Below, piece by piece: positions 34,356 through 36,932 of a stretch of 64,000 bases of DNA. The first letter of the stretch is position 1. Every line of letters starts with the position of its first letter. The position numbers were made by a program, and so were the translations under genes. Location: the NCBI RefSeq assembly GCF_003334765.1, contig NZ_QOWT01000013.1; one strand, given 5' to 3'. The notes beneath the pieces are model-generated. The model did not search any database, was not told where the DNA came from, and saw nothing but the letters and a program-made list of their open reading frames with translations. Source of the stretch: Escherichia coli (lineage in GTDB: Bacteria > Pseudomonadota > Gammaproteobacteria > Enterobacterales > Enterobacteriaceae).

Positions 34356-34904
34356 CTACCAGTGCCGTGCTGGCCCGGTATCAATATGCACAAAGTTACT
34401 ACGTGGATAATATCCTACACCACCTGCGCGCATAGATAACGCGGCTTTGCGAATATTGCTTAACGCGATACCTTCAATATGGAAATCCATCGCCTGGCCT
34501 TTAGTGTGATAGCTTTTCTTCGCTACTCCACGGCTGCGGGCGCGTAGTTCATTGTTGGTATCAATAGAACGATAACCGGAAATGAGTTGCACCGGTTTGC
34601 GCGTGCCTAACAACCCTTGCAGGCGATACAACTGGTCGAATAATCCTGGGTCGATGGACTTTATTTTGTTCGCGCGGTAATCGCGGAAAAAATGGTTAAG
34701 TTTTGCCAATTCTTCCTGAATATAGCCTCTGCCATCGAAAAACTCCGCTTTGATTGACTCTCCGGTATGAAGATTATTGAGTGTCAAAATGCGCGGGCGT
34801 GGGGTAGAGAGTGTTGCAAACGCAGGGGTCGGCAGGATGGCGGCACCGAGTGCAACGCCACCAAGCGCCAGCAATTTGCGGCGATTAGCGTCGAATTTGT
34901 CCAT
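34356..34904 (-). CDS. mepK: Murein endopeptidase MepK (YcbK), Tat-signal peptidase M15-like protein (182 aa)
   Basis: Translation from the ATG at 34904 begins MDKFDANRRKLLALGGVALGAAILPTPAFA (twin-arginine signal); recognised as YcbK/MepK. Confidence 0.85.
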   Translation of the reverse strand: MDKFDANRRKLLALGGVALGAAILPTPAFATLSTPRPRILTLNNLHTGESIKAEFFDGRGYIQEELAKLNHFFRDYRANKIKSIDPGLFDQLYRLQGLLGTRKPVQLISGYRSIDTNNELRARSRGVAKKSYHTKGQAMDFHIEGIALSNIRKAALSMRAGGVGYYPRSNFVHIDTGPARHW

Positions 34905-35084
34905 GATAATCAAGTCTACAGGTCAATGTTATCGTTTATATGCACTTCTGGCGCACAAGAGGCACCTTAACCGCCCGTAAAGCAGACGTCAAGATGACTC
35001 AACCCCAGCAGTGACGGGGGCTGCAGAGAATCGCCCCCAATCATGCTAATTATTACGACAACTGATTTCCCCGAACTACTTCAT

Positions 35085-36932
35085 TTACCTGATTAATTGT
35101 TCCGCTTTCGATACGATTTGCGAGCTGGATCGCGCAGGCAGATCATAATTGTAAATATCTGTACGATACTGGGTACGACCATCTGCACCAACAAAGGCCG
35201 TCAGGTAGTAGAGATTCACCGGAATCGACTGCCGAATATTGACGTAACGTGTATCACCCTGCTTCAGCGCATCAGAAATACGTTTGTCATTCCAGCCTGC
35301 ATCCTGCAACAGCATATTCGCCAGATCGGAAGCTTTATTCACTCGTACACAGCCTGAGCTCAATGCGCGTGTATCACGCTTGAACAGATTGTGGTTCGGC
35401 GTGTCATGCAAATAAATGGCCTCTGAACTCGGCATATTGAATTTATAGCGCCCCAGCGAGTTCCGTGGGCCTGGAGCCTGCTGGAAGCGGAACGGTAAAT
35501 TCGAGGCCGTGATTGTAGACCAGTCAACCTGCCATGGGTCAATCGCTTCTCTGCTGTTCCAGCCGCGCATCACCGTATAGCCATGGCTTTCGAGATATCC
35601 CGGATCGTTGCGCACTTTTGGCAGAATATCTTTGCGTGCCAGAGTTGGAGGTACGTTCCACGGCGGGTTTACCACTACGTTGTTAAGGGCACTGCTCATC
35701 ATCGGCGTTTTGCGATCGGGGCGACCGACAATGACTCGCGAATCCAGCACCTGATTGCCGTTCTGATAGTAGACCAGCGAATAGGCCGGAATGTTAACCA
35801 TGATCCCGGTAGAAAGCTCTGTTGGCAGCAAGCGCAATCGCTGGATGTTGAGAGCCAACACGCCAGCACGCTGGGCGGGCGTTACGTTTAACCAGTCACG
35901 TGTTGCCGGGCCAATAGCACCATCTGCCCCCAATCCTTGCCATGCCTGAAAACGTTTAACGGCTTCCACCAGTTCATTATCGTAGGCGGCGCGAACGGCA
36001 GGCGCAGGTTTACTACGAGACGTCGTTTGCTTATCCATCGGCTTAGTTTCTGCTGTTTCAACAGTAACAGCGGATGGGCTGACTACCGCGTCAGTTGGCG
36101 TGTCATCGCCAGGTAGAGTAATTTTCGGCCCCCCGTCCAACATGCCTGTGCGTTGCAATATTTCGCGCAACGCCGGTACGTCGTTACTCCACTGCCCTGG
36201 GCGCAACGTTGCTTTGCCGGTCAGTTGGGGCCACGGTTTGGTGTCACAGAGTAAGGCCAGTAACGATTCATGCATCGCCGCATATTGCGGATGCTGCGGT
36301 GCCAGTCCTGCAACAAACGTAGGCAATTGACCTTTATCCAGCGCCAGCTGCCATTGGTTAATCACCGAGAGCGGCGGCGTTGCAAGTGCATAAGGTTTAC
36401 TGCTATATAGCCAGCGAGTGCCTTTGACCGGAATATTTGCAATGAAATGGAGATAGCCCATCATCGCATCAGAGAGCACCACGTCGCGTGCCATCCCGTT
36501 AACACCAGGATCGGTCAGTAACTCTACCCATTTATTAAACTGCGGCTGGAAACCGGCAATCGCCACCTCTGCCAGCTGTTGCTGGAAGGCTTTAACAGCA
36601 TCACGGTTTTCCCACATGGGTTGCATATCGCGTGCGGCATACAACAGTTGAAGCTGGTTAAGATAAACCGGCTTGTAACCTGCGGGTAATTGAGATTCGA
36701 TTTGCGTGCGGGCTTTTTCTGCCGCACCTTCAGGCAATGGCTGGATCCCCGCCATTATTGCCGTGGCTTGCGCCTGCGGCAGTGCCTCGCCCTGTTCACT
36801 GACAGCCACCGGGCTGTCGCCAGGGATTACTTCAGGCTCATCGGCCTGCGCATTGAACAGTGGAGCGAATGTTACGGCCAGGCACAAACTGATTGCCGAC
36901 AGCCGACGACCACACATCATATTAAGCAACAT
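35085..36932 (-). CDS. ldtD: L,D-transpeptidase LdtD (YcbB, 615 aa)
   Basis: Signal peptide [30 protein letters not shown]; the C-terminal YkuD-type catalytic region includes [23 protein letters not shown] (catalytic Cys); recognised as YcbB/LdtD. Confidence 0.88.

Follow-up and report, generated by a model that had tools for sequence, protein, structure and literature searches.

The ldtD-mepK-gloC cluster of Escherichia coli is a known locus that carries an evolutionarily maintained writer/eraser pair, and in Enterobacterales it is probably split into two transcription units. The first unit would consist of ldtD, transcribed from its own promoter with a conserved CpxR-like box and ending at a hairpin whose structure is conserved. 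The second would consist of mepK and gloC, transcribed from the ldtD-mepK spacer, where TTGACG-N17-TAAGGT would be a conserved promoter, with the additional σE input that is reported in the literature. The 3-3 cross-linking by LdtD allows E. coli to bypass the penicillin-binding proteins and resist most β-lactams, and viability needs MepK; the way in which the pair is transcribed indicates when it is safe to turn on the bypass. The evidence favors separate units under different envelope-stress systems over one operon. The core biology is already published, and this analysis adds the breadth of the synteny, the likely mepK promoter and one conserved 21-nt element.

The analyzed window is a 64,000-nucleotide stretch of DNA that matches E. 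coli chromosomes with 100% identity. The three genes lie on its minus strand and were placed by the open reading frame listing and, in agreement with it, the RefSeq annotation of a 100%-identical E. coli record: ldtD (ycbB; 36932..35085, 615 aa), mepK (ycbK; 34904..34356 from its ATG start, 182 aa) and gloC (ycbL; 34329..33682, 215 aa). The mechanical open reading frame list opens mepK at TTG 34913, upstream of ATG 34904. The gaps are 180 nt between ldtD and mepK (35085-34904-1) and 26 nt between mepK and gloC (34356-34329-1), and 5409 of the 5426 complete E. coli genomes share this arrangement. The interval under study (34356-36932) spans ldtD and mepK and leaves gloC out. The locus is the known, ordinary and well-annotated E. 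coli cluster. The observation is confirmed, and the gene identities, the 180/26 spacing and the MepK Tat signal given in the original prediction agree with the open reading frame listing, RefSeq, NCBIfam, Pfam and individual residues.

LdtD in the window has the same sequence as the annotated E. coli protein and scores 1201 bits against the NCBIfam equivalog NF007891 (cut-off 425). Its Pfam domains are Scaffold (PF20142), PG_binding_1 (PF01471) and YkuD (E = 7.7e-26), and the catalytic motif SGCVR with Cys528 fits the YkuD active-site pattern SxGC[VI]R. The equivalog score, the scaffold and PG_binding_1 domains and the YkuD domain with its active-site motif identify a YcbB-type L,D-transpeptidase. 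MepK scores 274.9 bits against the equivalog NF053624 (cut-off 185) and matches Peptidase_M15_2 (DUF882, PF05951) with E = 3.3e-61. The metal-binding/catalytic residues H133, D140, and H173 are present in the window protein and invariant in an alignment of 36 homologues, and the H133A mutant is inactive (Voedts et al. 2021, bioRxiv 10.1101/2021.02.12.430937). The MepK amino terminus, DANRRKLLALGG...AFA, is a Tat signal peptide with the twin arginines R8 and R9. In the 36-homologue alignment R9 never varies and R8 reaches at least 90% conservation, and a published list of Tat substrates includes MepK (PMC8262268). DUF882 homologues often reach 500-730 aa and were considered as Rosetta-stone fusions, but what they carry in addition is a low-complexity tail with no YkuD domain. 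The "ycbK" of a minigene paper was set aside as an unrelated B. subtilis gene. For GloC (YcbL), a predicted cytoplasmic MBL-fold glyoxalase II, the best model match is TIGR03413 (GloB) at 110 bits, below the 200.8 cut-off, and the protein is identical to one named GloC by RefSeq.

The E. coli LdtD (YcbB)/MepK (YcbK) functional pair was reportedly described by Chodisetti and Reddy in 2019. LdtD forms 3-3 (mDAP3-mDAP3) cross-links, and MepK is a Tat-exported DUF882/M15 metallopeptidase with L,D-endopeptidase activity that prefers or cuts 3-3 cross-links (bioRxiv 10.1101/2021.02.12.430937; review PMC12729407). In the absence of MepK, production of YcbB is lethal (Voedts et al. 2021, bioRxiv 10.1101/2021.02.12.430937). 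The opposing activities assigned to the two proteins are correct according to this literature, and the functional link between writer and eraser is not new but already experimental knowledge. The connection of the pair to β-lactam bypass is likewise published in the same preprint, and a review, PMC12729407, treats the same subject. No statement on the chromosomal adjacency of ldtD and mepK was found in the Voedts preprint, and the open-access literature examined on LdtD/MepK contained no discussion of adjacency, phylogenetic spread or spacer anatomy.

The ldtD-mepK gap is conserved in length, with a median of 182 nt across loci, and its best-conserved non-coding feature is a promoter-like footprint at 34964..34992 (minus strand) with a -35 hexamer TTGACG (34992..34987), a 17-nt spacer and a -10 hexamer TAAGGT (34969..34964). 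Conservation of the hexamers is at least 90% across 64 spacers, and the intervening 17 nt are variable. The pattern TTGAC[G/T]-N17-TA[A/T]GGT recurs in 21 genera (TAATGT in one) and is positioned 46-79 nt (mostly 56-64) before the mepK ATG. The -10 TAAGGT agrees with the consensus at only 3/6 positions, and a generic promoter scan made no call at the footprint. We infer from its conservation that the footprint is a predicted σ70-type promoter for mepK-gloC. A small stem-loop, GUGCGC-CAGAA-GUGCAU (34940..34956, minus strand), is located at the predicted mepK transcript start, and per-sequence folding places a stem-loop at this position in 18/21 genera with differing pairing sequences, each individually weak.

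A GC-rich hairpin, GGGGGC-N11-GCCCCC (35016..35038, minus strand), lies 47 nt past the ldtD stop. The best hairpin lies between the ldtD stop and the -35 hexamer in 21/21 genera, is located at +35 to +56 in 16/21 and beats every one of 20 shuffles in 14/21. The hairpin sequences are unrelated across genera, so it is the structure and not the sequence that is conserved. The U-tract is missing in E. coli and most genera, and read-through from ldtD into mepK is therefore possible in E. coli. The hairpin is a candidate partial terminator or 3′-end stabilizer for ldtD that would attenuate this read-through. Together, the conserved promoter-like footprint and the structure-conserved hairpin make mepK-gloC look like its own unit and not part of an ldtD operon. 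A third feature of the region is a conserved non-coding block, TAAATG[A/C]AGTA...[T/G]GTCnnA (35052..35087, minus strand), that starts at the ldtD stop and is limited to Enterobacteriaceae and Yersiniaceae; its 3′ part is σE -10-like and the -35 match is poor. An Rfam search of the ldtD-mepK region returned no known RNA family. A CpxR box near mepK was considered and rejected, the match at 34967-34981 inside the promoter spacer having two mismatches and lying in a stretch that is not conserved. The PhoP box predicted for Shigella ycbK (PMC5775216) corresponds to 34983..34965 and was also rejected, its first half-site being unconserved in other genera.

The mepK-gloC gap has a median length of 40 nt (84 loci) and in the window holds only a Shine-Dalgarno-like CAGGGG (34339..34334). 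The corresponding genes ycbK-ycbL are listed as a σE operon, induced 9.7- and 6.6-fold by σE overproduction (Bury-Mone et al. 2009, PMC2731931). The 26-nt gap with nothing but a Shine-Dalgarno sequence and the joint σE induction show that mepK-gloC is likely a co-transcribed, bicistronic unit, as had been suggested from the spacing. A hairpin directly after the gloC stop (33648..33670, minus strand) is the likely end of this unit, and REP repeats are found beyond it at 33521..33618.

Upstream of ldtD, a mukB terminator-like hairpin with a T-run (37167..37188, minus strand) separates mukB from the ldtD promoter region. This region contains the CpxR-box-like sequence TTTAAACTTCTTTAC (37092..37106, minus strand; GTAAA-N5-GTAAA with one mismatch on the plus strand) and the block TTTATATACTGAAGATAAG (37064..37046), both of which are conserved in 13/13 Enterobacteriaceae sequences compared. 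Bernal-Cabas is said to have described Cpx regulation of ldtD in 2015. The gene is placed in the Cpx regulon (Delhaye 2016, PMC4791840; PMC7657598; PMC12729407), and YcbB protein is raised 4.7-fold on Cpx activation with no report for YcbK (PMC4985592). mepK is absent from the CpxR target lists examined (PMC4791840, PMC7657598, PMC4985592).

The 21-nt element ACAGATATTTACAATTATGAT (35142..35162, minus strand) is located inside ldtD at codons 591-597 and is frozen at synonymous sites. Its third-position identity is 0.90 compared to the ldtD gene mean of 0.42, and no other 7-codon window of ldtD ranks higher. The element is sharply bounded, has 0-1 mismatch in most Enterobacterales and is degenerate elsewhere. 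A CpxR site within it (GTAAATATCTGTACG on the plus strand) was rejected, the second half-site being unconserved. A σE ChIP-seq peak is reported at Salmonella ycbK (PMC4577112), and the Salmonella σE ChIP-qPCR primers map to E. coli ~35197..35130, which covers the element. According to PMC2731931, which cites Rhodius 2006 and Kabir 2005, ycbK was σE dependent in the arrays of three laboratories. The 21-nt element does not resemble the σE consensus. The spacer contains no match of at least 9/12 to the σE consensus GGAACTT-N16-TCNNA (TCTGA/TCAAA type), and a relaxed scan yielded only weak candidates, the best at 35464 within ldtD and at 35080 with a poor -35.

If the locus were one operon, ldtD, mepK, and gloC would be transcribed mainly from the Cpx-controlled ldtD promoter and writer and eraser would rise together. 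The three genes share a strand, the post-ldtD hairpin may be a poor terminator, as neither E. coli nor most genera have a U-tract there, and the gaps in distant lineages are just 66-97 nt, compatible with operons there. This arrangement is nevertheless quite unlikely. The 180-nt gap is conserved in length, and whereas a single operon would have no internal promoter, the gap holds a footprint that by its sequence is promoter-like in 21 genera. σE induction is listed for ycbK-ycbL and not for ycbB (PMC2731931), CpxR target lists have ldtD and not mepK (PMC7657598), and the rise in YcbB on Cpx activation is reported without a corresponding one for YcbK (PMC4985592). The spacer hairpin and footprint, and the assignment of ldtD to Cpx and of mepK-gloC to σE (PMC2731931, PMC4577112), argue against one co-regulated ldtD-mepK unit. 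The original prediction of a co-regulated module is thus supported in part only: the gene identities, the opposing activities, the likely mepK-gloC co-transcription and the synteny stand, but a single co-regulated unit of ldtD and mepK is not what the locus looks like. Independent promoters with opposite regulation had been named as evidence against the module; the control described in the literature appears to be independent and to belong to different envelope-stress systems, but it is not opposite.

A σE promoter within the 3′ end of ldtD or immediately past it could instead be the main source of mepK-gloC transcripts, in which case TTGAC-N17-TAAGGT would be something else or a minor housekeeping promoter. 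The candidate sites are the frozen 21-nt element, which lies under the ChIP-qPCR amplicon, and the post-stop GTCnnA block, which in Yersiniaceae ends with GTCTGA or GTCAGA and is σE -10-like; the σE dependence of ycbK in the arrays of three laboratories (PMC2731931) points in the same direction. This explanation is doubtful. Neither place has an acceptable GGAACTT-like -35 at the right spacing, the 21-nt element is unlike the σE consensus, and the TTGAC/TAAGGT footprint is the best-conserved non-coding feature and occurs across a wider range of families than the post-stop block. A σ70-type spacer promoter for mepK-gloC that receives an additional σE input is the preferred reading.

The organization of the pair was compared across related loci collected in a genome scan with 11 query sequences. 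ldtD is directly upstream of mepK on the same strand in 78/78 related genome loci with enough upstream DNA. In Enterobacterales the entire block mukB-ldtD-mepK-gloC-aspC-ompF-asnS is syntenic, and inside this order alone synteny might simply reflect vertical descent of the mukB-aspC block. The 78 loci include three from Vibrio and those of Photobacterium, Psychromonas, Aggregatibacter, and Spirabiliibacterium, where the outer neighbors differ. No mukB was seen in the ~6 kb flank in any of these five genera, nor any aspC in the ~6 kb flank of the Vibrio, Psychromonas, Aggregatibacter, and Spirabiliibacterium loci; in the Photobacterium locus aspC is ~3 kb beyond gloC. Three of six distant DUF882 lineages also carry the pair (42-48% identity to MepK): amid unrelated neighbors, a gene with Scaffold, PG_binding_1 and YkuD domains precedes the DUF882 gene by 66-97 nt. 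No transpeptidase neighbor of the DUF882 gene was found in the other three. The pair is syntenic far outside Escherichia, extending to Vibrionaceae, Pasteurellaceae, Psychromonas and these three distant lineages, so the lack of synteny that would have weakened the original prediction is not observed. It is very improbable that the adjacency has no functional meaning and is a gene-order accident inherited within the mukB-aspC block. The pair need not be individually selected in Enterobacterales, where the whole mukB...asnS block is syntenic, but it is kept in Vibrionaceae, Pasteurellaceae, and Psychromonas despite different flanks, it is found in three distant lineages with wholly different neighbors, and direct genetic dependence is published (bioRxiv 10.1101/2021.02.12.430937). 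The tandem of a YcbB-type transpeptidase and a DUF882 endopeptidase is an evolutionarily maintained pair, and the literature shows that an active writer makes the eraser necessary to the cell.

A wider reading of the locus is tentative: an ancient writer/eraser cassette maintained by selection, control of the eraser through the 21-nt ldtD element and possibly a role for GloC related to the cell wall. The cassette may have been kept across several gammaproteobacterial orders and metagenomic lineages despite reshuffled neighbors. The 21-nt element, which lies under the σE ChIP signal, may in core Enterobacterales serve as a regulatory site or an internal promoter and so link mepK-gloC expression to envelope stress. 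The tight GloC-MepK linkage may point to an unrecognized cell wall-related role of this cytoplasmic glyoxalase.

The closest known systems include the Vibrio cholerae ldtA (VC1268) locus. The Vibrio/Photobacterium loci have the same succession of a YcbB-type transpeptidase, a DUF882 gene and an MBL-fold gene, but differ in that the enterobacterial 21-nt element is absent and the ~6 kb flank showed no mukB. The E. coli LdtD/MepK pair (Voedts et al. 2021) consists of the same genes with no biological difference. The Cpx-regulated ldtD (PMC4791840) is the same gene, preceded here by the conserved GTAAA-N5-GTAAA-like box, whereas Cpx control is not reported for mepK. The two genes of the second unit are those of the ycbK-ycbL operon, one σE-induced unit in the literature (PMC2731931, PMC4577112); no canonical σE promoter was located here, and the conserved footprint in the spacer is instead of the predicted σ70 type.

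The mukB (41653..37193), ldtD (36932..35085), mepK (34904..34356) and gloC (34329..33682) genes lie on the minus strand, convergent with aspC on the plus strand. The ORF listing and the RefSeq annotation agree on this layout, and both reproduce exactly the 180-nt ldtD-mepK and 26-nt mepK-gloC gaps of the original prediction. Positions 33000-38500 of the window are 100% identical to many complete E. coli genomes, and this stretch is essentially intact in 5409 of 5426 E. coli genomes. The family assignments are firm. LdtD (YcbB), which makes 3-3 cross-links, scores 1201 bits against an NCBIfam equivalog cut-off of 425 and contains Scaffold, PG_binding_1 and YkuD domains with an SGCVR motif carrying Cys528. 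MepK (YcbK), which cuts these cross-links, scores 274.9 bits (equivalog cut-off 185), belongs to the DUF882/Peptidase_M15_2 family and carries an RR signal peptide, and its His133, Asp140 and His173 are invariant across 36 homologues; Salmonella MepK is a Tat substrate (PMC8262268). GloC (YcbL) has an MBL fold, scores under the GloB cut-offs and is identical in sequence to the RefSeq-named GloC. REP/BIME repeats between gloC and aspC (33521-33618 / 33542-33584, minus strand) explain why BLAST hits E. coli genomes at a median of 18 places each, and an Rfam match to the ES036 (CssrF) sRNA (53 bits) lies in this region. Elsewhere, Rfam matches a PyrD leader at 13207-13280 on the minus strand (97.9 bits).

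For synteny, a MepK alignment was run against a single genome of each species, and LdtD, GloC, MukB and AspC homologues were placed in the 80 returned loci by tblastn. All 78 loci with a sufficiently long upstream flank have an LdtD homologue as the gene immediately before mepK, in the same orientation. The entire mukB-ldtD-mepK-gloC-aspC block is syntenic in the Enterobacterales, which alone could be explained by simple inheritance. More informative are the loci of three Vibrio, one Photobacterium, Aggregatibacter and Spirabiliibacterium, which keep the ldtD-mepK-gloC triad. The ~6 kb flanks of these loci yielded no mukB and, with Photobacterium as the exception, no aspC. Psychromonas keeps the ldtD-mepK pair without gloC. 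Among contigs encoding DUF882 proteins with 42-48% identity to MepK, a Scaffold + PG_binding_1 + YkuD gene is located 66-97 nt upstream of the DUF882 gene in three independent lineages with completely different neighbors, and such a neighbor was not found on the contigs examined from three other lineages. The ldtD-mepK pairing is thus common and is retained whatever genes surround it, but it is not universal; its synteny extends well outside Escherichia. The gloC association is narrower (Enterobacterales, Vibrionaceae and Pasteurellaceae), and the more distant YcbB-DUF882 pairs lack gloC. In those three groups a cytoplasmic MBL-fold glyoxalase is encoded directly downstream of a periplasmic endopeptidase, with a median gap of 40 nt; in E. 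coli the sole content of the gap is a Shine-Dalgarno-like CAGGGG. Six DUF882 homologues of 600-730 residues (P0148, P0158, P0165, P0173, P0205 and P0264) start with a MepK-like domain and continue into a long low-complexity tail rich in Pro and Ala; they are not transpeptidase fusions.

The ldtD-mepK spacer has a median length of 182 nt and spans ~175-190 nt in most Enterobacterales and Vibrio. Alignment of 64 spacers reveals two near-invariant hexamers, TTGAC[G/T] (34992..34987, minus strand) and TA[A/T]GGT (34969..34964, minus strand), separated by 17 variable nt and located ~60 nt upstream of the mepK ATG. Conserved hexamers held at a fixed distance by a free spacer typify promoters of the sigma-70 family, and this alignment points to TTGAC[G/T]-N17-TA[A/T]GGT as a putative promoter belonging to mepK itself. 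A generic promoter scan did not call this footprint because the -10 hexamer retains only T1, A2 and T6. A computational PhoP box reported for Shigella ycbK, tGcTTTAcgggcGGTTaAg (PMC5775216), falls inside the putative promoter (34965-34983, minus strand), and its first half-site is unconserved in other genera. The best hairpin sits between the ldtD stop and the -35 hexamer in 21 of 21 genera with unrelated sequences, occurs at +35 to +56 past the stop in 16 and beats all 20 shuffles in 14. Most of these hairpins, including the one in E. coli (35038..35016), lack a U-tract. A small stem-loop at the 5' end of the predicted mepK transcript (34940-34956, minus strand) recurs at this position in 18 of 21 genera, formed by pairing sequences that differ between them.

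The published regulons assign the two genes to different systems. ldtD belongs to the Cpx regulon and mediates the toxicity of excessive Cpx activation (PMC4791840), YcbB protein rises 4.7-fold upon Cpx activation (PMC4985592), and the CpxR target lists from RegulonDB include ldtD and not mepK or gloC (PMC7657598). Upstream of ldtD, a CpxR-like box, TTTAAACTTCTTTAC (37106..37092, minus strand), and a -10-like block, TTTATATACTGAAGATAAG (within 37046-37106, minus strand), are kept in 13 of 13 Enterobacteriaceae sequences; E. coli and Citrobacter have ~70 extra nt between TTTATATACTGAAGATAAG and the ldtD ATG. ycbK-ycbL (mepK-gloC) is listed as one sigma-E-induced operon with 9.7- and 6.6-fold induction, in agreement with two earlier studies (PMC2731931), and sigma-E ChIP-seq in Salmonella gives a peak attributed to ycbK (PMC4577112).

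The published sigma-E promoter was not located: the spacer contains no match of at least 9/12 to GGAACTT-N16-TCNNA, and relaxed scans return weak candidates only. A non-coding block that starts at the ldtD stop, TAAATG[A/C]AGTA...[T/G]GTCnnA (35087..35052, minus strand), is restricted to Enterobacteriaceae and Yersiniaceae. Its 3' end (GTCGTA in E. coli, GTCTGA or GTCAGA in Yersiniaceae) looks like a sigma-E -10 element, and the corresponding -35 is poor. Primers published for ChIP-qPCR of the ycbK peak in Salmonella correspond to ~35197..35130 in E. coli, within the 3' end of ldtD. Beneath this amplicon lies the most striking item of the analysis, a 21-nt element, ACAGATATTTACAATTATGAT (35162..35142, minus strand; ldtD codons 591-597), that is frozen at synonymous positions in most Enterobacterales. 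Its third-codon-position identity across 31 genera is 0.90 versus a gene-wide mean of 0.42, the highest of any 7-codon window in ldtD, with sharp edges (flanking codons 0.42 and 0.29). It has 0-1 mismatch in Enterobacteriaceae, Yersiniaceae, Pectobacteriaceae, Hafniaceae and most Erwiniaceae; its synonymous sites degenerate in Morganellaceae, Vibrio and Pasteurellaceae, where the DIY.YD peptide motif is largely retained. A GTAAA half-site and two hexamers similar to -10 elements occur within ACAGATATTTACAATTATGAT, which has no Rfam match and is unlike the sigma-E consensus. It may act as a binding site for a regulator, as an element of an internal mepK promoter or at the RNA level.

Most simply, the locus reads as two neighboring transcription units, a Cpx-responsive ldtD and a mepK-gloC unit that would have a promoter of its own plus input from sigma-E, separated by a hairpin that may be leaky. 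Envelope stress acts on both units through different systems, so the proposal of a co-regulated ldtD-mepK remodeling module is only partly right. Operon-style co-regulation is weakened by the conserved internal promoter footprint and the regulon assignments. Oppositely regulated promoters combined with a pair confined to Escherichia were not what we found. The ldtD-mepK-gloC observation is real and exact. The open-access literature examined does not comment on the ldtD/mepK adjacency. The writer and eraser relation of LdtD and MepK is already experimental knowledge, with 3-3 cross-links the preferred MepK substrate (bioRxiv 10.1101/2021.02.12.430937). To a locus whose genes and functional relation are already known, this analysis adds modestly: how widely the synteny extends, a putative promoter for mepK and the frozen element of 21 nt.
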